Below are positions 6,378 through 55,647 of a stretch of 64,000 nt of DNA, piece after piece. The DNA comes from Tenacibaculum sp. GTDB taxonomy: Bacteria; Bacteroidota; Bacteroidia; Flavobacteriales; Flavobacteriaceae. The translations under genes were made by a program, and so were the position numbers. Position 1 is the stretch's first letter; every line of letters begins with the position of its first letter. Location of the stretch: assembly GCA_018456245.1 (NCBI GenBank), contig JAGYHQ010000001.1, positions 134,693 to 198,692 of the forward strand, written 5' to 3'. The notes beneath the pieces were generated by a model. The model did no database searches and was not told the DNA's origin. It worked only from the letters and a program-made list of their open reading frames with translations.

Positions 6378-9300
6378 TTATTTTACAGTATCTTTTTTAC
6401 GTGATGCAAAATTGATTAATTTTTTCGTTTTAACAATGGTATCTTTTTTGTGTAAATTTTCCTCTGGCTCTTTTCCTCTTATTTTTTGCCCTAATTCTTT
6501 AAAAGAATTAAAATTTACTTGATATGAAAGTCCTGTTCCTTGGGTATATCCCTCCTCTTCAATAGAATATTGAATATCATTAGGTTTATTAAAAATCGTC
6601 CACCTAAAAGTTCCTTTTTCATTTAATAAAACTTCTAATTTTACTTCTCCTATTACACTGGTTTGTGTTTTTGCTCCAACAGGAACTCCTACTTTTCCAT
6701 TTAATAATACTCTATCATTTAATTGAGATGTTACTGAAACGTCTAATTGATTATCAGTATCTACACCTTTAACATCATTTGTTCTTCCTTGTGAATAACC
6801 AACACCTAACTTAAATTTATCATCTTTTGAATTAATTACATTAGAAAGTACATTAGAAAGTAAATCAGATGCTGTTCCTATTCCAAAATCAGATGCTGCA
6901 TTTGAAGCAAGTGTTTCCCTATTATAAAACGACCCTGTAAATAGTAGTGAAAAGAAATTTAGCATTTTATTATTACTATCATTATCATTCAATACAAACT
7001 CCAACTCGGAAGAAATCATTGAATTTGCATTCGGAATTTTTATATCAAACTCTTGCTCTGAATTAAATAGTCCACCTGTTATTTTGGTATATAAATCTAC
7101 CGGAATTTTACGACTTGAAGATATACTATTTAACAATTGTGCAGGATTTGCCTTTGCCTTATATATTGCCACCAAATCTAACTCTGCACTAAAAGGATCT
7201 CCACTCCAAGAAATAGTTCCTCCTTTTTGAACTTCAAACTTTTTTGAAATACCTGAATATCTAAAATTATACTCTCCATTATCAATAGATAAATCTCCAT
7301 TCATTAAAAATTTTCCTTTAGTATCAATTTCAATTAATAAATTTCCTGTTCCACTTCCCTTTAATTCGTTTCCTGTTACTTTATCAATTACTACTTGAGC
7401 AACAGCATCTTTTGTAACTTCAAGATTCAAGTTTAAGTTTAAACCTCCAATATTTTTAATAGATTTTAATTTATCTGTTTCTTCCTCTTTATTTTTCTTA
7501 AAATGAATTAATTTATAATTATTTAAGGTAGTTACATCACTTAACGGAATTACAAAATTTGTTCCCTTTTCAGTTTTCCCTATTACATCAATAGTTAAAT
7601 TACTTGTTAATCCTTCTATTTGAGTACTTCCTCTTAAAAAGGCTTTTCCGTAATACGGAATTTCATCTACTTCTTTGGTATCTAATACTAGTAAATTAGA
7701 GGTATTCAAATCTAAATCTAAATACCACTTTTCAAAATTTTCATGATTTATATTACCCGATAAATATCCATGTGTATCATATTTAGTATCTTGTAATACT
7801 ACGTTTTTTAACGTAAATGATTGTCCTTTTAATTTAACATTAGCATTTTTTATAAAATCAAAATCAATATTTAAATAAGGAATTGTTAAACCTCCTTCAA
7901 CGATACTTAAGTCCCCCTTAAAAACAGGATTATACAAATATCCTTTTGATGTAAACTTACCTGAAACCCTACCTCTAATATTTTCAATTGTTTCTTCCCC
8001 TAAATTACTAAATCCGTTAATTTCGTATTCTTTTAATTTCACAAGAATATCCATTGTTGGTTTTTTAGTAGAAAAATCAAGAGTTCCAACAACTTTTACA
8101 TTATCAAAATCATAATCTTTAATTGAAATATCAACTTTGTATTTATCATATGAATTAGCTCCCTCTATTTTTGCTTTTAATGTACCTTGAGATAATTCAT
8201 TAACCATAACATCATTAATCACAATATTTGCAGTAGGCTGAATATTACCACCTTTTTGCAATATTGATAAATTACCATTTACAAGCCCATTTAATGCTAA
8301 ATTTTTAATATCAGGTAAAAAACTGGTTAACTCAACATTGGTAAAATTGGTTTTAAAATCTTTCTGTTTATTCCCTTTTAAACTTCCTAAAAACTCTATT
8401 TTTTGTTCTTTTGAAACTAATTTAAACGGACTGAAAACAAAGCTATCATCTCTTAAATCAAAAGATAATTTATTGTTTTGATTATCTTCTGGATTTATCG
8501 TCCAATTATTACCTTTATAATTAAAAGTTGATTTTTGTAAACCTATTACAGATTTTTTATCCTCATTAATTGTATAGAAAAAATCAAGATTAAAATTTTC
8601 TGTATCTTTTTCTCCTCCCTTAAAAGTAGATTTAAAAAACAGCGTATCATTTACCGTTCTGTTTAATAAATTTAATTTACTTACTTTATAATATTTTGAG
8701 GTTACTTTATCTGCTGTAATATGGGTATTATATAACTTGTTTTTATTATCAAGACGTAATTCAATTTTATCTATTATATTTTTATATACATCTATTTTTG
8801 GCGATGAAAAATTAAGTTTTACCGAATTTTTATTTGAATTTATTTTTCCTTTAACTATTGTTTTAGGAGATAAACTAACTTGAGGAAAAAATATATCAAC
8901 TATTTGGTTATGTATTGTAAAATTAAAATTTATAAATTGATTTGGAGACACAGGCAGCGGAGAATAGTTAGAATACACACTACCCAAAGCATTCTGAGTT
9001 ATAGGTAACAATTCAGAAAAAGTAAACTTTCCTTCTAACTTACCTTCAATAATATCTTTTGAATCTATTTTTATTGTATGAATACTATCCTTTAAAGAAG
9101 ATACAATATTAAACCTCTTAAAAACATAACTTTTTTTAGGATTTGTATATACAATATCTTTAAAATTTGCTTCACCAACTATATCATCAAACGTATTACC
9201 TGAAATATCTAAATTTATTTTTCCTTTTAATATAGATATACTATCTCGTTTAATAATATTTATTTTATGTAAATCTATTTTTTTAACATCAGCTACAAAA

Positions 9301-38921: not shown

Positions 38922-40346
38922 TTAATTATTATTTAATTTCTTAACTCCTATAACAAACATTAATATTGTCATTATCAATAGTAACAAAACAGAACTAATT
39001 AAAGTTCTGTTAGAATAATTGTTAAAATTGGTATTTGTATTAAACCTTGGTATTTTATTTGATAATTCATGATCAAATGTAGTTTTAGAATAAGAAATAT
39101 TAATATAAAAATCTTTTAAAATTTCTCTGAAATTATTTACATTACTATCAAATTTTTTATACTGTAAAGTATGAGTTCCTGTAATATAATTGGCTTGCTC
39201 CTGTAACAATAAAGCAGGACTTAAATACATAAAATTAGAGATAATATTTTGTTGTTTTTCTAGCTGTTTTTCTAGTTTTTTCTCTAAAGGATTAATCATA
39301 TTATCAATCTTCTTTATTTTTTCAAACTTACTTATATTATATTCTCTAACACTAATTTCCTTACTATTTTTACTTAATTCAGGGTGGTCATAAATAAATT
39401 TTTCTAATGTTTTAACCACTTCTTTCTCAATAATTTCTAAAGCATTTCTTTTTTCATTTATCAAAGTTACTCTTGAAGGCATTGGATATAATTTTTCTGT
39501 AACAACCTGTATTACACTAGGTACTAAAAGCATCGTTACTAACCACAAAGTCACTAAAAAAGAAACATTATAGTTTGATGATTTAAAGAAACTATTAATT
39601 AAAAATGACAAAGAAAACCACAGTAAAAAATAGAGATTAACAAGTATAAAAATCCATAAAAAATTTATAGATAAAATAATTTCTACGCTTATTGTTGTAA
39701 GAAATAAAACAACAATGAGCCAATAAGTTCCTGTAAATATTGAAAGCCTTAAAAACAGTTTATAAAATATAAATTTTGATAATTTTATATTAGAAATATT
39801 AATAACCTTTAAAGTACCTTGTTCTTTTTCTGATGATAAAATATTAAAAGAAAGGGCTATAATTATAAGAGGCAATAAATATATTGTTACAAAAAATAAA
39901 TCAAAATTACCTAAAAATTGAAGCACACCATTATTAATTTCAGATTCATGTATTAATGCTTGTTTTTTATTAGGTGATACCTTGTAATAATACGGTAATA
40001 AATCACTTTGCCCTACATTTAATATTTGTAAAGGAGAAGGTTTTTTTACAGCAAAACCACTTCCCATTTCTCTTGCTACTGTATAAATATTTGTAGGATT
40101 TTGCCATTTAGGACCATTAAAAAAACCATTATTTTTTTCTATTTTTTGTAAGTCTTTTTGAAAAGTTTGAAAATCCTTTTTTTCAAGTAACTCTATATCA
40201 GATATATTTTTTAAAATTTTATTATATCTAATTTGTCCAAATTTTAAAGAAGAAAAAATAAATGTTCCCATTACAATTAATAGTATAACAAATATTTTAT
40301 TTCTGTATAAAATTTTAAAATCGTGTAAGAATATATTTTTAATCAT
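38922..40346 (-). CDS. ABC-2-type transporter permease (DUF3526-like), subunit 2
   Basis: N-terminal TM, large extracytoplasmic loop, GQSDLLP, SSEKEQGTL and LPLIIIALSFN. Confidence 0.75.
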   Translation of the reverse strand: MIKNIFLHDFKILYRNKIFVILLIVMGTFIFSSLKFGQIRYNKILKNISDIELLEKKDFQTFQKDLQKIEKNNGFFNGPKWQNPTNIYTVAREMGSGFAVKKPSPLQILNVGQSDLLPYYYKVSPNKKQALIHESEINNGVLQFLGNFDLFFVTIYLLPLIIIALSFNILSSEKEQGTLKVINISNIKLSKFIFYKLFLRLSIFTGTYWLIVVLFLTTISVEIILSINFLWIFILVNLYFLLWFSLSFLINSFFKSSNYNVSFLVTLWLVTMLLVPSVIQVVTEKLYPMPSRVTLINEKRNALEIIEKEVVKTLEKFIYDHPELSKNSKEISVREYNISKFEKIKKIDNMINPLEKKLEKQLEKQQNIISNFMYLSPALLLQEQANYITGTHTLQYKKFDSNVNNFREILKDFYINISYSKTTFDHELSNKIPRFNTNTNFNNYSNRTLISSVLLLLIMTILMFVIGVKKLNNN

Positions 40347-41746
40347 TTTAAAACAGTGTTTTTGTTAATAATATTTAAAGAGAATACAGTTGATATGAAC
40401 AACCAAACCAATATAACAGCAATAGATAAGCCACTGTTTTTTAACCTACTAACCAAACTAAAAGTATTATGTTTAAATTGAGGTACAGATTTCCATAAAT
40501 TAATATTTGCTATACTGTTTTTCTCATAATAATCATTAATAATTTTTTGTATAATTCTTCTATGTTCTTCAGTTTTTTTTGTAAAACTTAAATGCGAGTT
40601 TAAATCGGTTCCTGCTATACTCATAGATAAATCTCTAAAAGCAATAAAAGGAGAAAAAACGGAACTGTATTTCACAAAAGCATTTTGTTTTTTAAAATTA
40701 TTAAAAACATCACCAAAGCATTTATCAAATATTTTAGCAGAATACTCCTCTGATTTTTGAATTCTATAACCCGAAAAGTTTATAGGTAATTCCTTCTCAC
40801 TTTTTACATTATATTTTTTCAAAACATCTTGTAACATTTTTTTACTTCTTTTTTTGTAAGTAGTTTTTCCGTCTAATCCATTCTGGCTATAATACTTAAC
40901 TTGCTCATCAAATTTTATAGATGTAATGTTAGGATAAATATTATTTGCTATTTCTGATGAAAATCTTGGAACTAAAAACACCCCTACTAACCAAAAAGCA
41001 ACTAATGTTATTAAAGAAGTAGAAGATTTTTTTAACCACAAAGAAATACTAATTCCAATTAATAATAATGAAGAATAAAACAATATTAAAAATAGAAATA
41101 AAGTAACAATATTAGCAAAAAAATCAATTACATTTTGCCCATAATTATTAATACAAAACATTAAAGCAGAAATAATTAATATAAAAGATACTACTACTAA
41201 AATTATTATAAATGTTGCTATAAACTTAGCTATAAATAAATGTTTTATATCTATCTTGGTACTTAAGAGCATTTTTATAGTTCCATTTTCCCATTCTTTT
41301 GAAAAAATACTATAGGTTAATACGAATATAAACAGGGGTATTATAAACTGTAATATATAACCTATGTTTAAAAAACCAAGCCTTCTTAAACTACTAGAAT
41401 CGTTAATTTCTTTTACTTTAACTTCCCCTTGTTTATGAGCTTCCATCCAGAAAACGGTTCCTAAATATTCATCTATTCCCCTTTCTAATGCACTCATTAA
41501 TGAAATAGGCTTAAACGCATAAAAACCATAATGAGCACCTGAATGAGGATTTTTTTCTCCCTGATTTACAAATTGCTCATAGCTCTCTTTTTGTGCCTTC
41601 CCAAACATATGAGAATGTGAGTTTAAATATAACTTACCATTATACAAAGCAATGACAGTTAAAAATATAATGATACCTAAGAAAAATAATATTCGTTTAT
41701 TCCTTACAATATCATTTAATTCTTTCTTAATAATGTATTTAATCAT
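40343..41746 (-). CDS. ABC-2-type transporter permease (DUF3526-like), subunit 1
   Basis: KNPHSGAHYG, MEAHKQ and KEWENGTIKML motifs; 4-nt overlap with the next gene. Confidence 0.75.
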   Translation of the reverse strand: MIKYIIKKELNDIVRNKRILFFLGIIIFLTVIALYNGKLYLNSHSHMFGKAQKESYEQFVNQGEKNPHSGAHYGFYAFKPISLMSALERGIDEYLGTVFWMEAHKQGEVKVKEINDSSSLRRLGFLNIGYILQFIIPLFIFVLTYSIFSKEWENGTIKMLLSTKIDIKHLFIAKFIATFIIILVVVSFILIISALMFCINNYGQNVIDFFANIVTLFLFLILFYSSLLLIGISISLWLKKSSTSLITLVAFWLVGVFLVPRFSSEIANNIYPNITSIKFDEQVKYYSQNGLDGKTTYKKRSKKMLQDVLKKYNVKSEKELPINFSGYRIQKSEEYSAKIFDKCFGDVFNNFKKQNAFVKYSSVFSPFIAFRDLSMSIAGTDLNSHLSFTKKTEEHRRIIQKIINDYYEKNSIANINLWKSVPQFKHNTFSLVSRLKNSGLSIAVILVWLFISTVFSLNIINKNTVLK

Positions 41747-41748
41747 AA

Positions 41749-42459
41749 CTAAATAATTAAAGATTTAACTTTATTTAAATACAATTTTTCTAATTCAGGG
41801 TAATCAATATCTTTTGTATCTACCTCTGCAGTAAGATTACCTTTGTGCATAATGCCAATTTTATGGCTTGTTTCTTTTGCCCTAAACAAATCATGAGTTG
41901 CCATTAAAATACTAACACCATTATTACTTAGTTCTGATATAATATTAGAGAACTCATTACTTGCCTGTGGATCTAACCCTGATGTAGGCTCATCTAAGAA
42001 CAAAACTTTTGTATTTTTAGCCAGTGCTATTGCAATACCTACTTTTTGTCTCATTCCTTTTGAATATCCTTCAACACGATTATTAATTAAGTTTTCACTT
42101 AATCCTGATTTTATCATAAAATCAATAAGTTCTAATTTAGAATAATTTAGTTTTGATAGATTACTAAAAAAAGTTAAATTCTCTAATCCTGTTAAGTTAG
42201 GATATAAATTAACTATTTCTGGGATATATGCTATTAGGCTTTTTATCTTTTCTTTTTCCTTTGCAACGTCTATACCGTTTATATAGACATTTCCTGATGT
42301 AGGTTTTATAAAACCTAAAAACATATTAATGGTAGTAGATTTACCTGCTCCGTTAGAACCTAACATACAATATATTTCTCCTTTTTTAATATGTAGGTTT
42401 AAATTATTTACAGCTGTAAAATCTCCATATTTTTTTACTACTTGTTCTGCTTTTATCAT
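41749..42459 (-). CDS. ABC transporter ATP-binding protein
   Basis: GSNGAGKST, YSKGMRQK signature variant, LDEPTSGLD and THD. Confidence 0.93.
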   Translation of the reverse strand: MIKAEQVVKKYGDFTAVNNLNLHIKKGEIYCMLGSNGAGKSTTINMFLGFIKPTSGNVYINGIDVAKEKEKIKSLIAYIPEIVNLYPNLTGLENLTFFSNLSKLNYSKLELIDFMIKSGLSENLINNRVEGYSKGMRQKVGIAIALAKNTKVLFLDEPTSGLDPQASNEFSNIISELSNNGVSILMATHDLFRAKETSHKIGIMHKGNLTAEVDTKDIDYPELEKLYLNKVKSLII

Positions 42460-42475
42460 AATATTTAATTTTTAT

Positions 42476-42504
42476 AAAAAACCACCTAAAAAAATAGGTG
42501 GTTT
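42476..42504 (-). terminator. Internal intrinsic terminator between TonB receptor and ABC ATPase
   Basis: Minus strand reads aaaccaccta-ttttttt-taggtggttttt. Confidence 0.65.
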
Positions 42505-42514
42505 AATTAAACTC

Positions 42515-44848
42515 TTAGAATATATATTTAACATTTAACCCTCCATAGAAAGCTCTTGGCTCTCCTAAATTAAAGTAACTTCCATAAGCATTTACATCAA
42601 GATAATCTACCCAAATAGTATCAAATAAATTTTTTCCTCCTACAAACACATCAAACTCTAAGTGGTTAAAGAATAATTTTTTATACCCTATTTTAGCACT
42701 TAATAAACTATGAGAATCTACAACTACCTTATTCGCATCTTCTGCAAATCTTTCATCACGGTAGTTAAATACTGTATTTCCATATAATCCAAAGTTTGTT
42801 TGTAAATCAACTCCTAAATTTAAACTATGAGGTGAAATTCCTGCCATTCTCTTACCGTCATATTGTGGTTTAGCCTCATTTTTAACAATAGTATAATCCT
42901 GATAAGTATATGTAGTCCAAAGTCTTAACAATTTAATTTTTTCAGAATCTTCAACAACATTATAATTTAATGTTGCTTCTATACCTTGTTGTCTAACATT
43001 TCCTCCATTAAAATAAACTTGTTTATCATTAGCATCTTTTTTACCAAGAATAATATTATCTGTATTCATTCTGTACAAAGTAACATCGTAAAAAAGTTTA
43101 TTTTTTGCTACTTTACCTCTTGCCCCGATTTCATAACTAATTCCATCTTCTGGTAAAAGTTTTGTATTAATGTCTCCTGTACTTGGGTTTATCTCAGCTG
43201 AACGAGGAGGACTAAATCCTTTGTTTATACTTGCATGAACAGAGATATTATCATTAAATTTCTTAGTAAGTGAAACCCTTGGAGAAAAGACCGACTTAAC
43301 ATCAAATTTACTACTAAAATCATTTCCATTTACTTTGTAAAGTTCTTTAATATCATAATCTTGTACATTATAACTTCCTCCAATTGTAAAGTAAAAATCA
43401 TTAGGAAAATCTAATTCTATTTGTCCAAAATAGAAACTATTGTTAGATTTTGTATTATCACTTTTTTTAATTTTATTAAAATCAACTATAGTATTTGTTG
43501 TTTCATATGTTGATTTATCTATATCATTATGTAATGTTTCTAAACCAACTGTAAATTTTGTTTTTACATTTTCAAAAATTTGTGGTTTATACTCAATTTT
43601 TCCTCTAAAAGTATAACCAATATCTTTTGAAAAAATAATAGCACCATATGTATTTTTATCAGTTGCTGGTTTTTTCTTATTTTTTCCATTATCTCTATTT
43701 GGGTGATTAAAACTTCTCGTAGAAACGGTACCACCAAATGTAGCAGATAAATTCTTTAGCATTTCATACTTGTAAGAAGCACCAAAAAGCAAATTTTTTG
43801 TATCTATTCCATAATCTGCTAAAACTCTATCTTTTATAACTCCAAAAGGGTCTTCTTTAAATGCTTTTTCAGATAAATACCCTCCTCTATTAACATTTTT
43901 TTCGTTTTTAACAGCAAAAACTGATAATTTCCCTTTTTTACCTGTATTAAACAAACCTGTTACTGCTAAAGTATTTAAAGATGTTTCAGTATGTTTTCTG
44001 TATCCATCATATTCTTGGGTAGTGTATGAAATATTTATTCTTGAATTTTCAGTACTTATATTTGCACCAAATTTATTTCTAAATAAACCATATTTACCAA
44101 ATAATGTACCTGCAGAAATAGAATTATCTCCATATTCAGGTAATTCAGTTTTAAATAAAATTACCCCACCTGTACCAGAACCATATACGTTACCAGAAGA
44201 ACCTTTAATAACCTCAACACTATTAATAATGTTAGGATTAAAAATATCCGTTGCAGTACCTCCATCTGCGCTTGTTACTGGTAAATCATTCCAATACACC
44301 TTTACGCCCATTGTTGTATGTATGTAACGATACATACTTCCACGTATTGACAAACGAGTTGATCCTCCTCCTGTAGCATCAACATGTACCCCTGGTATAT
44401 TATTTAAAGACTGTGCAATATCAATATTATTATCTCTATTAATTTCTAAAGACCTAATTTTTGATATTGAACCTGCAGTTTCTAAAATACTTCGGTTATT
44501 TTCAAAACCAGTTACGGTTATTTCATCTAACTGTTCATCACTTTCAACTAAAATAGTGTTTAAAGTAACATTTTTATTAAGTACTACTTTCTCTTTTTTG
44601 GTACTATATCCTAAATAAGAAAAAACTAAAGTGTACTCACCAGTTGGTAATTTTAAAGAATAATTACCATTATCATCAGTTACTGTTCCTTTTTTAGTGT
44701 TTTCTACTATTACAGAAACAGCATCTAAATATTGTCCTTTGGGGGTTTTAACACTTCCCTTAATTAAGTAATTTTGTTGTGAGTACACATTTACCCCACC
44801 CATTAAAAATACGCTTATGAAAAGCATTAAAATAATTGATTTTTTCAT
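42515..44848 (-). CDS. TonB-dependent outer-membrane receptor with N-terminal carboxypeptidase-regulatory-like domain
   Basis: Signal peptide, GTVTDDNGNYSL domain, LDEITVTG TonB-box-like segment, plug (LSIRGS, VEVIKG...YGSG), C-terminal aromatic F. Confidence 0.92.
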   Translation of the reverse strand: MKKSIILMLFISVFLMGGVNVYSQQNYLIKGSVKTPKGQYLDAVSVIVENTKKGTVTDDNGNYSLKLPTGEYTLVFSYLGYSTKKEKVVLNKNVTLNTILVESDEQLDEITVTGFENNRSILETAGSISKIRSLEINRDNNIDIAQSLNNIPGVHVDATGGGSTRLSIRGSMYRYIHTTMGVKVYWNDLPVTSADGGTATDIFNPNIINSVEVIKGSSGNVYGSGTGGVILFKTELPEYGDNSISAGTLFGKYGLFRNKFGANISTENSRINISYTTQEYDGYRKHTETSLNTLAVTGLFNTGKKGKLSVFAVKNEKNVNRGGYLSEKAFKEDPFGVIKDRVLADYGIDTKNLLFGASYKYEMLKNLSATFGGTVSTRSFNHPNRDNGKNKKKPATDKNTYGAIIFSKDIGYTFRGKIEYKPQIFENVKTKFTVGLETLHNDIDKSTYETTNTIVDFNKIKKSDNTKSNNSFYFGQIELDFPNDFYFTIGGSYNVQDYDIKELYKVNGNDFSSKFDVKSVFSPRVSLTKKFNDNISVHASINKGFSPPRSAEINPSTGDINTKLLPEDGISYEIGARGKVAKNKLFYDVTLYRMNTDNIILGKKDANDKQVYFNGGNVRQQGIEATLNYNVVEDSEKIKLLRLWTTYTYQDYTIVKNEAKPQYDGKRMAGISPHSLNLGVDLQTNFGLYGNTVFNYRDERFAEDANKVVVDSHSLLSAKIGYKKLFFNHLEFDVFVGGKNLFDTIWVDYLDVNAYGSYFNLGEPRAFYGGLNVKYIF

Positions 44849-46282: not shown

Positions 46283-48739
46283 ATGATTCAGGATTTGGAA
46301 ACAGCTAAAAATACAGAACAACTTTCTTTTAATGATTTTAAAAACGAAGTTTTAAACGATTACCGAATAGGTAGAATTAGTCGTGAATGTAGTTTATTAG
46401 GAAGACGTGAAGTATTAACAGGTAAAGCCAAATTCGGAATTTTTGGAGACGGAAAAGAATTACCACAATTAGCAATGGCGAAAGCTTTTAAAAATGGCGA
46501 TTGGAGGTCGGGTTACTATCGTGACCAAACTTTTATGATGGCAATTGGCGAGTTATCTGCTCAACAATTTTTTGCAGGGTTATATGCTCATACTGATATA
46601 AACGCCGAGCCAATGTCGGCAGGGCGACAAATGGGAGGGCATTTTGCCACACATTCATTAGATGAAAATGGTAATTGGAAAAACCTCACTGAACAAAAAA
46701 ATTCATCGGCAGATATTTCCCCAACCGCTGGGCAAATGCCTCGTTTATTGGGTTTAGCACAAGCCTCTAAAATTTACAGAAATTTAAACGATTTAAAAGA
46801 ACGTAGCAATTTTTCTAATAACGGAAATGAAGTTGCTTGGGGAACAATTGGTAATGCAAGTACATCAGAAGGGTTATTTTTTGAAACCATAAACGCTGGT
46901 GGTGTTTTACAAGTTCCTATGATTATTAGTGTTTGGGACGATGAATATGGGATTTCAGTTCACGCAAAACATCAAACTACTAAAGAAAATATTTCTGAAG
47001 TTTTAAAAGGTTTCCAACGAGAAAAAGGAACAAACGGATACGAAATTTTTACCGTTAATGGTTGGGATTATGCCAAATTAGTTGATGTTTTTAGTAAAGC
47101 ATCTAACATTGCAAGAGAGCAACACGTACCTATATTAATTCACGTAAAAGAGCTTACGCAACCTTTAGGACACTCTACTTCAGGCTCTCACGAAAGATAC
47201 AAAACAGAAGAGCGATTAAATTGGGAAAAAGAATTTGATTGTTTAGCTCAATTCAGAAAATGGATTTTAGAATTTGAATTAAAAGACGAAAACGGAAATA
47301 TTCTAAAATTTGTAGAGAACGAAGAAGAATTAATCAATTTAGAAAAAACGGCTAAAAAGGAAGTTTCCATTGCTAAACAAAATGCTTGGAAAGCGTATCA
47401 AGATGATATAAAAACTGAACTAAATGAAGCCATTTCTATTTTAGAACGGGTTATTGTTAATAGTGACAATGGCTTATTTATAAAAAAACTAAAAACCGAT
47501 TTAGTTTCAAAAAAAGAAATAATCCGTAAAGATATTTTATTAACCTGTCGTAAAAGTTTACGATATTTAGTTAATGAAGATTTTTCAGAAAAAACAGAAT
47601 TAATAAACTTTATTAACATTAAATTAAAGAGTGCTTATGAAAAATATTCAACTCATTTAATTTCTGAAAACTCTCAATCGCCTTTAAAAATAGAGGAAAA
47701 ACCTGCAATTTATAGTAAAGATAAAAATTTAGTAGACGGAAGAATTATTTTAAGAGATAATTTTGAGGTTATTTTAGCCAAACACCCTGAGGTTTTAATA
47801 TTTGGGGAAGATGCAGGGTTTATAGGAGATGTTAACCAAGGATTAGAAGGCTTACAAAATAAATTTGGAGAATTACGTGTTGCCGATACAGGAATTAGAG
47901 AAGCCACTATTTTAGGGCAAGGTATTGGTATGGCTATGCGAGGGTTACGCCCTATTGCTGAAATTCAGTATTTAGATTATTTGCTATACGCCTTACAAAT
48001 TATAAGTGATGATTTAGCAACATTACGTTACCGTACTTTTGGAAAACAAAAAGCTCCTTTAATTATAAGAACTCGTGGTCATCGTTTAGAAGGAGTTTGG
48101 CACGCAGGCTCGCCAATGGCAGGAATAATAAATAATGTTCGTGGAATACACGTTTTAGTTCCAAGAAATATGACAAAAGCCTCAGGTTTTTACAACACCT
48201 TATTAGAAGGAGATGACCCTGCTTTAGTTATAGAATGCCTAAATGGATATCGTTTAAAAGAAGAATTACCTACTAATTTAGGAGAATTTAAAACTCCAAT
48301 AGGTGTAGTTGAAACCATTAAAGAAGGAAAAGATATTACCATTGTTTCTTATGGCTCTACCCTACGTTTAGTTGAAGAAGCATCTAAAGAATTAGCACAG
48401 GTAAATATTGATGTAGAAATTATAGACATACAAAGTTTATTACCTTTTGATATTAATAATGACACCGTAAAATCTTTACAAAAAACCAATCGTTTATTAA
48501 TTGTAGATGAAGATGTACCAGGGGGAGCATCAGCATATTTATTACAGAATATTTTGGAAAACCAAAACGGTTATAAATATTTGGATAGCAAACCACAAAC
48601 CTTAACATCAAAACCACACAGACCTGCTTATGCTACTGATGGAGATTATTTCTCAAAACCATCAGTTGAAGATATTTTTGAAAAGGTTTACGAAATTATG
48701 CACGAAGCAAACCCTAATAAATATAAGAAACTGTATTAA
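46283..48739 (+). CDS. 2-oxoacid (probably branched-chain) dehydrogenase E1, fused alpha/beta subunits
   Basis: TPP-enzyme features: GYYRD, GNASTSEG...DDEYGIS, GHSTS, FGED, DTGIREATI, AEIQY and IVDED. Confidence 0.9.
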   Translation: MIQDLETAKNTEQLSFNDFKNEVLNDYRIGRISRECSLLGRREVLTGKAKFGIFGDGKELPQLAMAKAFKNGDWRSGYYRDQTFMMAIGELSAQQFFAGLYAHTDINAEPMSAGRQMGGHFATHSLDENGNWKNLTEQKNSSADISPTAGQMPRLLGLAQASKIYRNLNDLKERSNFSNNGNEVAWGTIGNASTSEGLFFETINAGGVLQVPMIISVWDDEYGISVHAKHQTTKENISEVLKGFQREKGTNGYEIFTVNGWDYAKLVDVFSKASNIAREQHVPILIHVKELTQPLGHSTSGSHERYKTEERLNWEKEFDCLAQFRKWILEFELKDENGNILKFVENEEELINLEKTAKKEVSIAKQNAWKAYQDDIKTELNEAISILERVIVNSDNGLFIKKLKTDLVSKKEIIRKDILLTCRKSLRYLVNEDFSEKTELINFINIKLKSAYEKYSTHLISENSQSPLKIEEKPAIYSKDKNLVDGRIILRDNFEVILAKHPEVLIFGEDAGFIGDVNQGLEGLQNKFGELRVADTGIREATILGQGIGMAMRGLRPIAEIQYLDYLLYALQIISDDLATLRYRTFGKQKAPLIIRTRGHRLEGVWHAGSPMAGIINNVRGIHVLVPRNMTKASGFYNTLLEGDDPALVIECLNGYRLKEELPTNLGEFKTPIGVVETIKEGKDITIVSYGSTLRLVEEASKELAQVNIDVEIIDIQSLLPFDINNDTVKSLQKTNRLLIVDEDVPGGASAYLLQNILENQNGYKYLDSKPQTLTSKPHRPAYATDGDYFSKPSVEDIFEKVYEIMHEANPNKYKKLY

Positions 48740-49167
48740 TGGAGCAGGAAACAGATTTTATTTTAAAAGAAATAAAAAAGATAACCTATTTTCTATCTAA
48801 ATTAATTAGTAATATTAGCACATCAAATAATTTTGAAATAGAAAATATAATTAATGAAACCGATGAATTTCTTAAAGAAAAATGGAAATTATCTTTTAAT
48901 GAAATTACAACTTTAAATGAAATTGATTTTTTAAATAAATTAGAAAATTTACCTGAAATTCATCTTGATAAATTTGTAGAATTATTAAGTGAAATAATAA
49001 ATAAACTTAAAACTTCTGAATTACAAAACAAATACAACAAAAATGAATTAGCTAATAAAACTATTGTTTTAATTGATAAAATAAATAAAAATTCAAAAGA
49101 TCTTTCATTAAAACGAATGCAAATTAAAAATAACTTACAACAGGAAGTTCATAATATTTTTAACTAA
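48739..49167 (+). CDS. Hypothetical helical protein
   Basis: 142-aa ORF whose ATG overlaps the E1 stop codon (TAATG). Confidence 0.6.
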   Translation: MEQETDFILKEIKKITYFLSKLISNISTSNNFEIENIINETDEFLKEKWKLSFNEITTLNEIDFLNKLENLPEIHLDKFVELLSEIINKLKTSELQNKYNKNELANKTIVLIDKINKNSKDLSLKRMQIKNNLQQEVHNIFN

Positions 49168-49198
49168 AAATTAATATTATACGTAATAATTATTTTTA

Positions 49199-49206
49199 TA
49201 CATTTG
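49199..49206 (+). promoter_or_regulatory. -7 element (TACATTTG) for the Cys-rich module
   Basis: TAnnTTTG match 18 nt upstream of ATG 49225; it contains the TTG used by the ORF track. Confidence 0.6.
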
Positions 49207-49224
49207 TATATTACATTTTGTTAT

Positions 49225-49578
49225 ATGAAGTTTACAATTAAAACATTTTTTATAATTATTTTAAGTTTAGGTATTTTATTACCTCAAACTTATGCTTCTA
49301 ATTACAAAATAAAATCAACTATCACTGAAACAACAATGTCTTGTTGTGATGTAGATTCAGAAGAATCTTGTAATTGTTCAACAGATTGCAATATGTATAA
49401 CAAAACATGTAATACAAATTGTTGTTGTTCTAATTTATTGTACCTAAACCAAGAAGTTTCTTTTTGTAAGTTATTATTTTTTGATGTTCATTCAAAATTA
49501 ATAAATACTTACAATAACAGATATAATTATTTATTTCATTCTAATATTTATAAACCTCCAATTAATTTTTTATCCTAA
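49225..49578 (+). CDS. Cys-rich exported/membrane-anchored protein with C-terminal IYKPP motif (candidate metal-sensing arrest leader)
   Basis: 117 aa from ATG 49225: hydrophobic signal, 10 Cys (CC..CNC..C..C..CCC..C), aromatic-rich linker, ending IYKPPINFLS. Confidence 0.7.
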   Translation: MKFTIKTFFIIILSLGILLPQTYASNYKIKSTITETTMSCCDVDSEESCNCSTDCNMYNKTCNTNCCCSNLLYLNQEVSFCKLLFFDVHSKLINTYNNRYNYLFHSNIYKPPINFLS

Positions 49579-49626
49579 AAATGAAAAAATTAACGAAAAT
49601 AGATTTATAAATTAAAAACAATAAAG

Positions 49627-49923
49627 ATGAAAAAAATAATTTTAATATTATCAATAGCCTTGGGAACATTAGCTTATGGCTCTACATCAGTACAAAAAAC
49701 AGAAATAAAATGTGAATGTAAAACAACAGGAGTTTGCACTTGTGAAGAAACTTGTGAGTGTGATTCTTGTAAACATGAAAAATGTAAATGTACTGAAAGT
49801 GAAAAATGTACTTGCAAAGGAAAGTGTAAATGCAGTACTTCAAATTCAAAAAAATGTAATTGTGATGATACAAAAAATTGTACTTGTAAAGATGTTTGTA
49901 AGTGCGGTTCTTGTAAAAAATAA
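49627..49923 (+). CDS. Secreted metallothionein-like protein (20 Cys, three 24-aa repeats)
   Basis: Sec-type signal MKKIILILSIALGTLAYG. Residues 29-96 carry 20 Cys in CxC and CxCxxC motifs, are Lys-rich and contain no aromatic residues. Followed by a terminator. Confidence 0.8.
   Translation: MKKIILILSIALGTLAYGSTSVQKTEIKCECKTTGVCTCEETCECDSCKHEKCKCTESEKCTCKGKCKCSTSNSKKCNCDDTKNCTCKDVCKCGSCKK
49711..49914 (+). repeat. Three tandem 72-nt (24-aa) coding repeats, units starting at 49711, 49783 and 49855
   Basis: CECKTTGVCTCEETCECDSC / CKCTESEKCTCKGKCKCSTS / CNCDDTKNCTCKDVCKCGSC. Confidence 0.85.
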
Positions 49924-49941
49924 TTATTTTTTATAAAAAAT

Positions 49942-49969
49942 AAAGAGGTTCAATATGAACCTCTTTTTT
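49942..49969. terminator. Intrinsic terminator after the metallothionein-like gene (probably bidirectional)
   Basis: aaagaggttc-aatat-gaacctcttt followed by a T tract. Confidence 0.85.
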
Positions 49970-53417: not shown

Positions 53418-54107
53418 ATGGAATTAGACCCTACAAATCAATTTATAAAGGCAATTTTAAAATGCTCTAATATTAAAGATAAAAATATTTTAGAAATTGG
53501 TTGTGGTAGTGGTAGAATTACTAAAGATTTAGCAAAATATGCAAAATCAATCACAGCTATTGACCCTGATGATAACTCTTTAAAAATAGCCAAAGAAAAT
53601 TTAACATCTAATAAAATTACCTTTATTAAAGGATTAGGGGAAGATTTATCTTTTTTAAAAGATAAAAAGTTTGATGTTGTAATTTACTCCTTATCATTAC
53701 ATCATATACCTTACAAGGCAATGGAATTAAGCCTAAAACAAGCTACTGAATTATTAAATGATAACGGAAAATTAATAATTATTGAACCTGATAAAAATGG
53801 AAGTTTAATAAAAGCTGAAGAATTATTTAATGTGGGAGATGGAGACGAAACATTTGTAAAGCAAAAAGCCATTAAGGCAATTAAATCATTAAAAAATTAT
53901 GAAGTAATTAAAAAAGATTATTTCAACACTTTATTCTATTTTAATGATGAAATTGATTTTTTAGAAAATATGTTACCTGATTACAAAACGAAACCAAACA
54001 ATTTAATTTCAGAAATAAAAAAATTCCTAAATGAGCATAAAGAAAATGATAAAATTACTTTATACGCAAGTAGGAATATAAATATTTTAAAAAAGTTAGA
54101 ATGTTAA
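53418..54107 (+). CDS. Class I SAM-dependent methyltransferase
   Basis: ILEIGCGSG motif I, AIDPD, and FDVVIYSLSLHHI. Confidence 0.88.
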   Translation: MELDPTNQFIKAILKCSNIKDKNILEIGCGSGRITKDLAKYAKSITAIDPDDNSLKIAKENLTSNKITFIKGLGEDLSFLKDKKFDVVIYSLSLHHIPYKAMELSLKQATELLNDNGKLIIIEPDKNGSLIKAEELFNVGDGDETFVKQKAIKAIKSLKNYEVIKKDYFNTLFYFNDEIDFLENMLPDYKTKPNNLISEIKKFLNEHKENDKITLYASRNINILKKLEC

Positions 54108-54452
54108 AACCTTATCACTATCAATAATCCATTCGGCTAATTCATTCATTGTTGATTTTTCTGCTCCCTCAAAATATGGGTGGTTTTTATAAATTCCACA
54201 ACGAGACATACAAGTACCACAAACCTTAACAACAACATTATTAGCTATTAAATCCTTTAACATTTGCGATAAATCTTGGTCATAACCTTGTGGTGGTTTG
54301 CAAATATCTCTTGCCATATCAACTGCATCATTCATTAAAAAAATCCTAACTTCTACATCTTTTTTTCTTAATGTTTCTGCTAATCGTAACCCATTCCAAG
54401 TTACGTCAGTATTATCATATGGTTCTCTATTAAAAATTATTAAAGTTTTCAT
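54096..54452 (-). CDS. DsrE/YchN-family protein
   Basis: EPYD...WNGLRLA, VRIFLMNDAV and VCGTC motif. Confidence 0.85.
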   Translation of the reverse strand: MKTLIIFNREPYDNTDVTWNGLRLAETLRKKDVEVRIFLMNDAVDMARDICKPPQGYDQDLSQMLKDLIANNVVVKVCGTCMSRCGIYKNHPYFEGAEKSTMNELAEWIIDSDKVLTF

Positions 54453-54483: not shown

Positions 54484-55647
54484 TTATTTACTAGAAAACA
54501 TCTTAACATCTTCTTCTGAAATTGTTTTTCCTCCAAGAATTATAAGCCTTTCAATAATGTTTCGTAGTTCACGAATATTACCCGTCCAATCATATCCTTG
54601 CAATATTTTAATCGCTTTATCTGAAAATGATTTTGTAGGTATTCCTTGTTCTTTTGATATTTTTTCAGCAAAATGATTTACTAATAACGGTATATCTTCT
54701 CTCCTATCATTTAATGCAGGAACTTTTATTAAAATAACAGCTAATCTGTGGTATAAGTCCTCTCTAAAACGCCCCTCGGCAATTTCTTTTTTTAAATCTT
54801 TATTTGTTGCTGCAAGCACACGAACATTTACTTTTATATCTTTATCACTACCAACTTTACTTATTTTATTTTCTTGTAAGGCACGTAACACTTTTGCTTG
54901 TGCTGATAGGCTCATATCTCCAATTTCATCTAAAAAAATCGTTCCGTTATTGGCAGATTCAAATTTACCAACCCTATCTTTATTTGCTCCTGTAAAACTA
55001 CCTTTTACATGCCCAAATAATTCACTTTCAATTAATTCTGACGGAATTGCAGCACAATTTACTTCAATCATTGATGAATTTACTCTTTCTGATTTTTCAT
55101 GTATCCAATGGGCAACTAATTCTTTTCCTGTTCCGTTAGGTCCTGTAATTAATACACGAGCATCAGTAGGTGCTACTTTTTCTATAATATCTTTAATGTG
55201 AGTAATTGCAGAACTATTACCAATCATTTCATAATTTTTACTCACTTTCTTTTTTAGTCGTTTATTCTCAACGATTAATTCTTTTTTGTCAAGAGCATTA
55301 CGAACGGTATTTAGTAACCTATTTAAATCTGGTGGTTTTGATATATAATCAAACGCACCAAGCCTCATTGTATTTACTGCTGTATCTAAATCTCCATGAC
55401 CCGAAATCATAACAACAGGAATTTCAGGTTTTAATTTTCGTACTTTTTCAAGCACCTCTACTCCGTCCATTTTTGGCATTTTAATATCACATAATACCAA
55501 ATCGTAATCATTTTTTTTAATTAGCTCAAAACCTGCTAATCCGTCTTCTGCTTCCTCAACTTCATAACTATCATTTTCCTCTAATATTATCTTTTTTAAA
55601 ACCCTACGAATTGCAGACTCATCTTCTATTATTAATATTTTACTCAT
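54484..55647 (-). CDS. Sigma-54-type response regulator (REC-AAA+, NtrC/NtrX-like)
   Basis: REC domain (EDE, CDIKMP), GPNGTGKE, ESELFGH, GSFTGA, FLDEIGD and GNIRELRN. No clear C-terminal HTH. Confidence 0.9.
   Translation of the reverse strand: MSKILIIEDESAIRRVLKKIILEENDSYEVEEAEDGLAGFELIKKNDYDLVLCDIKMPKMDGVEVLEKVRKLKPEIPVVMISGHGDLDTAVNTMRLGAFDYISKPPDLNRLLNTVRNALDKKELIVENKRLKKKVSKNYEMIGNSSAITHIKDIIEKVAPTDARVLITGPNGTGKELVAHWIHEKSERVNSSMIEVNCAAIPSELIESELFGHVKGSFTGANKDRVGKFESANNGTIFLDEIGDMSLSAQAKVLRALQENKISKVGSDKDIKVNVRVLAATNKDLKKEIAEGRFREDLYHRLAVILIKVPALNDRREDIPLLVNHFAEKISKEQGIPTKSFSDKAIKILQGYDWTGNIRELRNIIERLIILGGKTISEEDVKMFSSK

Follow-up and report, generated by a model that had tools for sequence, protein, structure and literature searches.

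A Putative Two-Gene Operon for a Probably Exported, Metallothionein-Like Repeat Protein in a Tenacibaculum Genome

Here, we analyze a gene for a 98-residue cysteine-rich protein, together with the gene directly upstream of it, in a stretch of 64,000 nucleotides (nt) from the marine flavobacterium Tenacibaculum sp. (assembly GCA_018456245.1, contig JAGYHQ010000001.1). The whole stretch is called the window, and positions given without a locus name refer to it. We will argue that positions 49199-49966 constitute a self-contained, probably copper-responsive two-gene operon for a modular Cu(I)-thionein that resides outside the cytoplasm, and we put the probability of this reading at roughly 55%. 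A more specific version is possible and is less likely than not: the product would be a Sec-exported Cu(I)-thionein built from the seven-cysteine unit of fungi and animals, would represent the first natural bacterial extracytoplasmic metallothionein family, and would be gated by an arrest-peptide sensor of the CutF/CopL type. Export, metal binding, copper as the metal, the stoichiometry and the arrest-based regulation are all properties that we infer from sequence, and copper is a guess that is better supported than Zn or Cd. A first-pass annotation of the window had recognized the repeat protein correctly; it did not notice the upstream partner, the homologs with one unit or the organization as an operon.

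The operon consists of the following features.

49199-49206, + strand: TAcaTTTG, found by motif scan 19 nt before the ATG of the partner gene and matching the Bacteroidetes -7 element TAnnTTTG; likely operon promoter
49225-49578, + strand: partner gene, 117 amino acids (aa), with an N-terminal signal/anchor helix, a Cys cluster and a C-terminal KPP motif, from alignments of 11 members
49342-49428, + strand: partner Cys cluster, residues 40-68, CC-x7-CxC-x3-C-x6-C-x3-CCC, proposed as a periplasm-exposed metal-sensing motif by analogy with CutF
49552-49560, + strand: partner codons K110-P111-P112, six codons before the stop, a putative pause or arrest site dependent on elongation factor P (EF-P)
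49579-49626, + strand: 48-nt spacer that separates the partner gene from the peptide gene; the motif scan shows no promoter here
49627-49923, + strand: gene for the 98-aa Cys-rich protein, predicted to be exported; ATG-to-TAA reading frame
49627-49680, + strand: predicted Sec signal peptide, residues 1-18, from a heuristic reading of the N-terminus
49711-49770, + strand: unit 1, residues 29-48, CECKTTGVCTCEETCECDSC, 7 Cys
49783-49842, + strand: unit 2, residues 53-72, CKCTESEKCTCKGKCKCSTS, 6 Cys, with Ser72 at the position of the seventh Cys
49855-49914, + strand: unit 3, residues 77-96, CNCDDTKNCTCKDVCKCGSC, 7 Cys
49942-49966, no strand assigned: bidirectional intrinsic terminator with an 11-bp stem, a 3-nt loop and T-runs on both strands; 2 sites found against 0.1 expected

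The Cysteine-Rich Protein

The first-pass annotation described 98 residues with three units at an exact 24-aa period, and a recount of the residue positions agrees on every point. The cysteines stand at 29, 31, 37, 39, 43, 45 and 48, at 53, 55, 61, 63, 67 and 69, and at 77, 79, 85, 87, 91, 93 and 96, which gives three C-x-C-x5-C-x-C-x3-C-x-C-x2-(C/S) units in exact +24 register and 7 + 6 + 7 = 20 Cys in total. The composition given earlier for the mature part (no aromatic residues, one His and 17 Lys) is likewise reproduced by a count from residue 21 on (C20 K17 T10 E8 S7 D4 V3 G3 N3 Q1 I1 H1), where Cys accounts for 26%. The N-terminus reads MKK, followed by a hydrophobic core of 12 residues (mean Kyte-Doolittle value 2.76) and then A-Y-G|S. 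This n-h-c layout is of the Sec/SPase-I kind and conforms to the Sec-type signal that had been proposed, and the signal region contains no Cys and thus no lipobox. The signal peptides of both proteins of the operon were judged heuristically in this way, from charge, hydrophobic core and cleavage-like motif.

The periodicity is present at the protein level only. The DNA segments encoding the units are 58-68% identical to one another, and Tandem Repeats Finder reports no DNA repeat over the unit region; the triplication is therefore old. When 1.2 Mb of fetched DNA were translated in six frames and searched, only this gene and its homologs showed the relaxed pattern C-x-C-x(4-6)-C-x-C-x(3-4)-C-x-C-x2-[CS], and the Cys pattern is not due to chance.

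A 96-aa ortholog from a metagenomic relative (loci L092, L093 and L098) keeps all 20 Cys, and its middle unit also lacks the seventh Cys. Between the two genes, the ratio of non-synonymous to synonymous substitution rates (dN/dS, Nei-Gojobori) is 0.20 at a dS of 0.66, compared to 0.19-0.33 for the neighbouring genes and 0.19-0.25 for those of them with housekeeping functions. The open reading frame (ORF) is a real gene under purifying selection, and the possibility raised in the first-pass annotation that it has no gene product is contradicted by these values and by the Cys conservation.

The exact 98-aa sequence is absent from a collection of ~15 billion predicted proteins and from the contig index and the cluster table. 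The adjacent 117-aa partner protein is present in the same collection (from NCBI/Logan), and the source genome annotation therefore probably skipped the gene. A similar case is locus L094, where a 52-aa homolog is not among the called genes, and homologs are uncalled in some loci. Such absences are what one would expect from a non-gene or a decaying remnant whose Cys periodicity is a by-product of TGT-rich DNA. Against this explanation, which we find scarcely credible, stand the dN/dS of the ortholog with its complete set of Cys, the homologs that are called in many independent assemblies, the terminator and operon structure, and the lack of a tandem repeat in the DNA.

The AlphaFold model of the 98-aa protein has a predicted local distance difference test score (pLDDT) of 45 and no confident autonomous fold, the alignments being shallow. 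Such a low score would be compatible with metal-dependent folding, for which it is weak evidence.

Comparison with Known Metallothioneins

We now compare the unit with metallothioneins of fungi, vertebrates and bacteria. Each unit has the Cys spacing X2-[CXC]-X5-[CXC]-X3-[CXC]-X2-C-X3 of the family 8 metallothioneins, with Ser at the seventh position in unit 2. A strict regular expression for this spacing matches the Neurospora crassa metallothionein (sequence printed in PMC4755600), the beta-domains of human MT-2 and mouse MT-1, and all three units of the window. Among the single-unit homologs described below, it matches P0003, P0008 and L094, and not P0002, in which the third spacer has 4 residues. 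There is no match to Cup1, Crs5, Candida glabrata MT1 or SmtA.

A profile of the family aligns without gaps to the PDB entries 2MHU and 1DFT over all 7 Cys, with E values of ~1. For the Pfam model Metallothio (PF00131), which has a gathering threshold of 23 bits, the window protein scores 11.1 bits (E 0.44), the ortholog 15.9 bits (E 0.014) and P0004, a protein discussed below, 15.5 bits. Judged from these scores, the 98-aa protein is not placed in PF00131: the spacing is exact and the homology is not statistically significant. The metallothionein-like reading of the first-pass annotation is thus strengthened, though not proven, by two independent lines, namely the exact spacing of the Cu-thionein unit and the CutF/CopL-like partner, and is limited by the Pfam scores below threshold. 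Its parallel with the 20 Cys of vertebrate metallothioneins, on the other hand, is a coincidence of 7 + 6 + 7; the real parallel is unit by unit.

Among the nearest likenesses are the metallothioneins of N. crassa (P02807) and Agaricus bisporus, which have the same Cys spacing, ~22-26 residues per unit, 7 Cys and no aromatic residues. These fungal proteins are cytosolic, single-unit and Gly/Ser-rich, whereas the window protein is bacterial, Lys/Glu/Thr-rich, equipped with a predicted Sec signal and paired with a second gene; the single-unit bacterial members also differ from them in being acidic. Tandem amplification of a 7-Cys unit is found in CnMT1 and CnMT2 of Cryptococcus neoformans, with three and five 7-Cys boxes, respectively (PMC4755600), and in TmMT of Tremella. 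CnMT1 thus has the same number of boxes as the window protein, and TmMT also mixes 7-Cys and 6-Cys boxes. Every fungal 7-Cys box takes up copper as a Cu5 cluster, Cu4 is assumed for the 6-Cys boxes, and the 7-Cys unit has been characterised in fungi as a Cu-thionein that is poor with divalent metals (PMC4755600); the contributions of the boxes are additive in fungi. These eukaryotic proteins are cytosolic and have long spacers between the boxes, while in the window protein, which is predicted to be exported, the units abut via 4-residue linkers with a 24-aa period. No fungal metallothionein is among the matches of an exhaustive search of 1.84 billion representatives. As far as sequence comparison goes, homology of the bacterial unit to the fungal Cu-thionein cannot be shown over a motif so short and of such low complexity.

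The first seven Cys of the vertebrate MT-1/2 beta-domain (2MHU, 1DFT; PF00131) also align without gaps, and C-T-C-x-G-x-C-K-C recurs. The vertebrate beta-domain differs in having 9 Cys, in being fused to an 11-Cys alpha-domain and in lacking a signal peptide. Since the beta-domains of the same spacing bind Zn and Cd (2MHU is a Cd7-MT2 entry), and since Cys-rich CxC proteins bind many soft metals and metalloids, another option considered was that the protein, by its thiols and outside the cytoplasm, buffers or carries something else than copper, i.e. Zn, Cd or Hg, As(III) or Sb(III), selenium or polysulfide, or scavenges oxidants. We consider this quite unlikely: it is at odds with the above-mentioned copper preference of the fungal unit, and Cys-rich CutF-like proteins, which the partner resembles, are mostly tied to copper genes (PMC9973294).

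With SmtA/BmtA, MymT and PmtA, the window protein would share the role of a small, Cys-rich, metal-sequestering bacterial protein. Those proteins have a different Cys/His pattern and fold and no export signal, and the Pfam and NCBIfam models of SmtA/BmtA-type bacterial metallothioneins do not match the 98-aa protein. Csp1, CopG and CueP, all with known periplasmic Cys-based copper sites (PMC7558416), are precedents for the binding of Cu(I) by thiolates, in sites or in clusters, beyond the cytoplasm. These are folded domains, namely a four-helix bundle exported via Tat or a thioredoxin-like fold, while the window protein is proposed to be an unstructured thionein that would be exported unfolded by Sec. 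A reading as an antifreeze-like Thr/Cys beta-helix was considered too and was dropped, as the period is another one and so is the motif, which is CTC here and not a TCT that recurs every 12 residues; no observation speaks for this reading.

A Family of Single- and Three-Unit Proteins

A word-indexed homolog search with the 98-aa protein alone returned nothing. The exhaustive search with phmmer yielded 3 proteins, all of them with N-terminal signal-type leaders, and a profile search added more. Homologs with other repeat numbers, as the first-pass annotation had suggested looking for, thus exist: most family members are single-unit proteins of 46-52 aa that consist of a signal peptide and one unit, e.g. 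MKKYVAMAFMAIALSTVVYGVKQSQNSDDKCICNQTEICTCITDCDCSSCGS. Among the members found, three units occur only in the lineage of the window. The single-unit proteins are acidic, with a net charge of -2 to -3, and the three-unit proteins are Lys-rich, with +4 to +5. The carriers are uncultured, low-GC (24-34%) metagenome contigs, on one of which a neighbouring gene has a Por_Secre_tail domain of the type IX secretion system (T9SS). The family is small and unnamed.

In P0005, which stands for a cluster of 16 member sequences, Tyr replaces the seventh Cys (...CDCSSYES), in parallel to the Ser in unit 2 of the window protein. The invariant core is therefore made up of the three CxC pairs.

A more distant case is P0004, which is 79 aa long, has an N-terminus of the signal type and about two thionein-like units, and is encoded in a Phycisphaerae metagenome-assembled genome (GCA_022072405.1, locus L088, positions 8001-8240). 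It is a distant or convergent relative. An uncalled 136-aa ORF (L088, 7494-7904) lies 97 nt upstream of P0004 and has an N-terminal hydrophobic segment, a CGCVCC motif and, close to the C-terminus, GPP. Its match to the NCBIfam model CopL_fam is weak (E 0.005, below the cutoff), and its comparison with the flavobacterial partner profile by hhalign shows no significant similarity. A Burkholderia match obtained with this ORF by tblastn was rejected as spurious, since it is out of frame within an ABC permease gene.

The Partner Gene

The partner gene (101-127 aa) is found 28-55 nt upstream of the peptide gene in all contigs long enough to contain both, which represent 11 distinct loci; in the window the distance is 48 nt. 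Several genomic contexts were found for this cassette of two genes: between E1 dehydrogenase and DUF2851 genes (the window lineage), with M20 peptidase and PfkB genes, and with genes for a SASA-T9SS protein and a GT2 protein. As the contexts differ, the gene pair travels as a unit. This arrangement also bears on the possibility that the 98-aa protein is the precursor of a ribosomally synthesized and post-translationally modified peptide, with an N-terminal leader and with Cys modified to thioethers or other cross-links. The small size, the richness in Cys and a conserved segment that links the hydrophobic N-terminus to the Cys core would suit such a precursor. We regard it as very improbable, because the N-terminus follows the n-h-c order seen in Sec signals and because only the 117-aa partner is conserved, with no radical-SAM, lanthionine-synthetase, cyclodehydratase or peptidase-transporter gene in any of the contexts.

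In the partner proteins, S39, C40, C51, C62, C66, C67, Y96, Y100, Y102, F104, K110, P111 and P112 are invariant, and C41 and C68 are nearly so. The family is characterised by a hydrophobic helix at the N-terminus, by the invariant S-C(-C), by a Cys cluster ending in CCC, by a poorly conserved middle part and by a strongly conserved C-terminal motif, Y-x3-Y-x-Y-x-F-x3-I-Y-K-P-P-I-x-F-x-S, in which K-P-P is invariant in 11/11 members and lies 5 residues from the protein end. At the N-terminus, two positive charges precede a core of 12 residues with a mean Kyte-Doolittle value of 3.13. The AlphaFold model (pLDDT 45) is confident for the helix of residues 2-17 only. In the last 10 sense codons (30 nt), the window and L092 differ by three synonymous and no non-synonymous changes, and the constraint there is therefore on the protein.

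A search of plasmids with the partner by tblastn gave no match. The partner may resemble the Bacteroidota families DUF6660 and HYC_CC_PP; neither Pfam nor NCBIfam gave a match. In locus L095 (6001-6377), a frameshift splits the partner into pieces of 73 and 52 aa, while the 52-aa peptide gene downstream is unbroken; the split reflects either a variant that naturally lacks the partner or a mistake in the assembly.

The architecture of the partner recalls that of Rhodobacter capsulatus CutF, a nascent exported copper sensor of 118 aa with a Sec signal and a periplasm-exposed Cys motif. At the C-terminal proline motif of CutF, GPPPRL, copper prolongs EF-P-sensitive stalling, and the stalled ribosome melts an mRNA stem-loop, by which the initiation site of the downstream cutO becomes free (PMC9973294 and follow-up preprint). 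CutF-like/DUF2946 proteins have been defined by a length below 150 aa, a signal peptide, PP in the last 15 residues and a downstream gene in the same orientation, and 19-40% of them come from Bacteroidota (PMC9973294). Those with Cys-rich motifs stand upstream of copper-homeostasis genes, and Xanthomonas CopL is grouped here (PMC9973294).

The partner agrees with every one of these rules, having 117 aa, a signal by heuristic judgement, a Cys motif, PP 5 residues from the end and 48 nt to the next gene. When the rules are applied as a filter to the 1.2 Mb of fetched DNA (fewer than 150 aa, signal, Cys motif, PP in the last 15 residues, same-strand gene less than 100 nt downstream), the ORFs that pass are the partners, the one from Phycisphaerae and just 2 more. 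We also compared the partner with three Xanthomonas CopL sequences from the database. The CopL sequences, which are from plasmids, end in ...HLIRPPI(G/S) and carry CC-x4-C-x-C-x-C, and the partner ends in ...NIYKPPINFLS and carries CC-x7-C-x-C. The partner has no Pfam or NCBIfam match, CopL_fam included; real CopL is without a Pfam match as well, so that the Pfam negative is weak. Given this and the non-significant profile comparison reported below, the likeness to CutF/CopL is therefore architectural, with no homology demonstrated. The partner is built like CutF/CopL, and it is not claimed as a member of the family.

The likeness extends to the position directly upstream of an exported, metal-related gene (predicted to be so here) with a short spacer and may extend, as in CutF, to a spacer that in some of the loci can pair with the downstream initiation region. 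The differences are a much richer Cys cluster in the partner (9-11 Cys), the lack of detectable sequence homology, and a stem that pairs with the AUG and not with a Shine-Dalgarno sequence and is weak in the window. Moreover, the downstream gene is thionein-like, a class of neighbour without an entry among the CutF-like proteins of PMC9973294.

Operon Signals and the Spacer

TAnnTTTG is the consensus of the -7 promoter element in Bacteroidetes. In the motif scan, it precedes the partner gene in the window, in L092 and in L091, and it is never found within the spacer between partner and peptide genes. At the other end, the terminator lies 19 nt past the stop of the peptide gene and directly after the convergent DUF2851 gene, and GC-rich hairpins with T-runs are also found 3' of the peptide gene in all the other loci with the cassette.

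Some further elements near the promoter were observed. In the window, a 19-nt A/T-rich unit (ATAATTATTTTTATACTA) is present in 2.9 copies at 49151-49201 according to Tandem Repeats Finder. The array covers the end of an upstream 142-aa ORF and the stretch immediately before the promoter motif of the partner; it could be a regulator site or AT-rich noise. Upstream of the partner in L091 (~240-361), a direct repeat of ~35 nt (AAAAAGCATCTTTTATTGTGTACAAAATAAAAAG, twice) with the near-palindrome TTGTGTACAA ends just before the -7 motif and could be an operator. The single-unit loci L081 and L100-L105 share a conserved element, GATGTTAAAAYATGTSAAAAAAT, at -60 to -30 upstream of the partner, which is not present in the window.

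In loci with a single unit, the final codons of the partner (...CAUUUUAUUUCU) show complementarity to the initiation region of the peptide gene (AGAAAUAAAAUG). The stem is strong in L087 and L105, with 12-14 bp, -14.2 kcal/mol, a fold z of -5.0 and none of 2954 local controls as good; it has 10 bp in L100-L104, and L094 retains it with an altered sequence. Over ten loci, 75% of the cells are paired at the spacer stem, compared to 45-52% in slid registers. In the window, a 9-bp A/U-rich duplex can form between the 3' end of the partner gene (49561-49578) and 49617-49636, a segment that contains the AUG of the peptide gene. The spacer stem is thus a feature of part of the family, and for the window it is uncertain.

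Proposed Mechanism and Alternatives

On the basis of these results, the following mechanism can be proposed. The two genes would be transcribed together, and the partner would be exported co-translationally via Sec, such that its Cys cluster emerges into the periplasm and meets a metal, most likely Cu(I). Residues 40-51 of the partner lie ~60-70 residues ahead of P111-P112, which would be enough to span the ribosomal tunnel and the translocon. Metal bound to the Cys cluster would then prolong a pause of the ribosome at K-P-P. Standing six codons short of the stop, with ~66 nt (22 codons) left to the following AUG, the ribosome in this pause would open or favour the initiation site of the thionein gene. 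The thionein would leave SecYEG in reduced form, and each unit would take up its fold about a Cu(I)-thiolate cluster. If the fungal Cu5 and Cu4 boxes are taken as a guide, the mature protein of ~80 aa and 20 Cys might bind ~14 Cu(I) per chain, and its role would be to buffer copper, or to sequester it, in the periplasm or on the cell surface. If the thionein were made only when metal is present, this would explain how its thiols escape oxidation outside the cytoplasm, and would meet the concern of the first-pass annotation about an oxidising periplasm.

A number of observations weigh against this proposal and have to be taken into account. The periplasm is normally oxidising. The seventh Cys is dispensable, and the 6-Cys core could form three disulfides. 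In none of the genomic contexts examined is there a copper or other metal gene next to the cassette. The match to the metallothionein spacing covers a short, low-complexity motif, with E ~1 against the PDB metallothioneins, and no curated Pfam or NCBIfam model matches the 98-aa protein or the partner at threshold. The hhalign comparison of the partner with Xanthomonas CopL gives a probability of 1.9% and covers the signal helix only. Finally, the duplex in the window is weak (-6.6 kcal/mol, equalled by 2.3% of the local control windows), the spacer stem is absent in the closest relative L092 and in L091, and RNAalifold finds no consensus structure for ten spacers.

Several of these points would fit a disulfide-rich secreted mini-protein, such as an antimicrobial peptide, a signal, an adhesin or a structural protein, with the CxC pairs forming a ladder or knot and the partner acting as immunity protein, chaperone or anchor. 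We regard this as the main rival and as unlikely. The Sec-type signals of both proteins would place the Cys in an oxidising compartment, the conserved core has an even number of 6 Cys (the seventh being Ser in unit 2 and Tyr in P0005), metal genes are missing nearby, and a peptide gene next to one for a small membrane protein is a layout typical of bacteriocin-immunity pairs, too. Most single-unit members, on the other hand, have 7 Cys, which is an odd number, and the spacing is identical to that of a proven Cu-thionein unit; no disulfide-rich fold was matched, and a direct sequence search of the PDB with the 98-aa protein gave no match. The protein also lacks hydrophobic and aromatic residues and Gly/Pro turns, AlphaFold gives no confident knot, and the KPP motif six codons from the stop, the most conserved feature of the partner, would be hard to explain for an immunity protein. 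We thus prefer the Cu(I)-thionein operon.

Implications

The chemistry of thioneins and the arrest-peptide-like leader are each known; what is new is the compartment, the phylum and the pairing. A literature search that included the phrase 'periplasmic metallothionein' found no report of a natural periplasmic or exported bacterial metallothionein. To our knowledge, the known bacterial metallothioneins SmtA/BmtA, MymT and PmtA lack export signals. Copper handling in the periplasm is thought to take place mainly via Met and His sites, because thiols oxidise there. If the proposal is true, bacteria also employ metal-thiolate clusters outside the cytoplasm, and how the oxidation problem could be circumvented is suggested by the sensor-like leader gene with which the thionein gene is paired.

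The papers on CutF (PMC9973294 and the follow-up preprint) give no thionein-like downstream neighbour. Translational sensing of the CutF/CopL kind would thus extend to a new class of targets and to Bacteroidota, where the accessibility of the start codon and not that of a Shine-Dalgarno sequence would need to be controlled. The similar pairing in Phycisphaerae would mean that the design arose or spread across phyla. The reuse of the fungal and vertebrate 7-Cys spacing would be a case either of clean convergence or of very old shared ancestry, and the one-unit and three-unit versions would constitute a natural experiment on the modular gain of metal capacity. Small exported thioneins would be of practical interest for metal capture, and such small genes are easily overlooked by annotation.

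Genomic Context

We finally turn to the surroundings of the operon. Upstream lies the following ORF.

48739-49167, + strand: 142-aa ORF without a family match, overlapping the stop of the E1 dehydrogenase gene (ATGA)

It has a 70%-identical ortholog in L092, with a dN/dS of 0.25, and is conserved in this closest relative only; a functional link to the cassette is uncertain. The gene order in L092, L093 and L098 is the same as in the window, with E1 dehydrogenase, 140-aa, 118-aa and 96-aa ORFs, then the convergent DUF2851 gene, a nitroreductase, an SSF symporter and a methyltransferase. The E1 dehydrogenase of the window is closest to those of Tenacibaculum and Polaribacter (77-80% identity), and in the nearest Tenacibaculum-like relatives the E1 and DUF2851 genes are directly convergent and 15-100 nt apart. 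Neither a Cys-rich ORF nor the 142-aa ORF is found in 80 related E1-dehydrogenase loci. The 1.2-kb block of 142-aa ORF, partner and peptide genes is therefore an insertion in the lineage of the window.

Two other groups of genes in the window may be mentioned. At 38922-44848 (- strand), ~5 kb from the cassette and with no link to it established, a gene for a TonB-dependent receptor that contains a CarboxypepD_reg domain is followed in an operon-like arrangement by genes for an ATP-binding cassette (ABC) ATPase and two ABC-2/DUF3526 permeases. Downstream of the cassette by ~4.5 kb, and without demonstrated connection to it, the gene for a small DsrE/DsrF-like protein (54096-54452, - strand) adjoins that for a sigma-54-dependent response regulator (54484-55647, - strand), a pair that is sulfur- or thiol-related.

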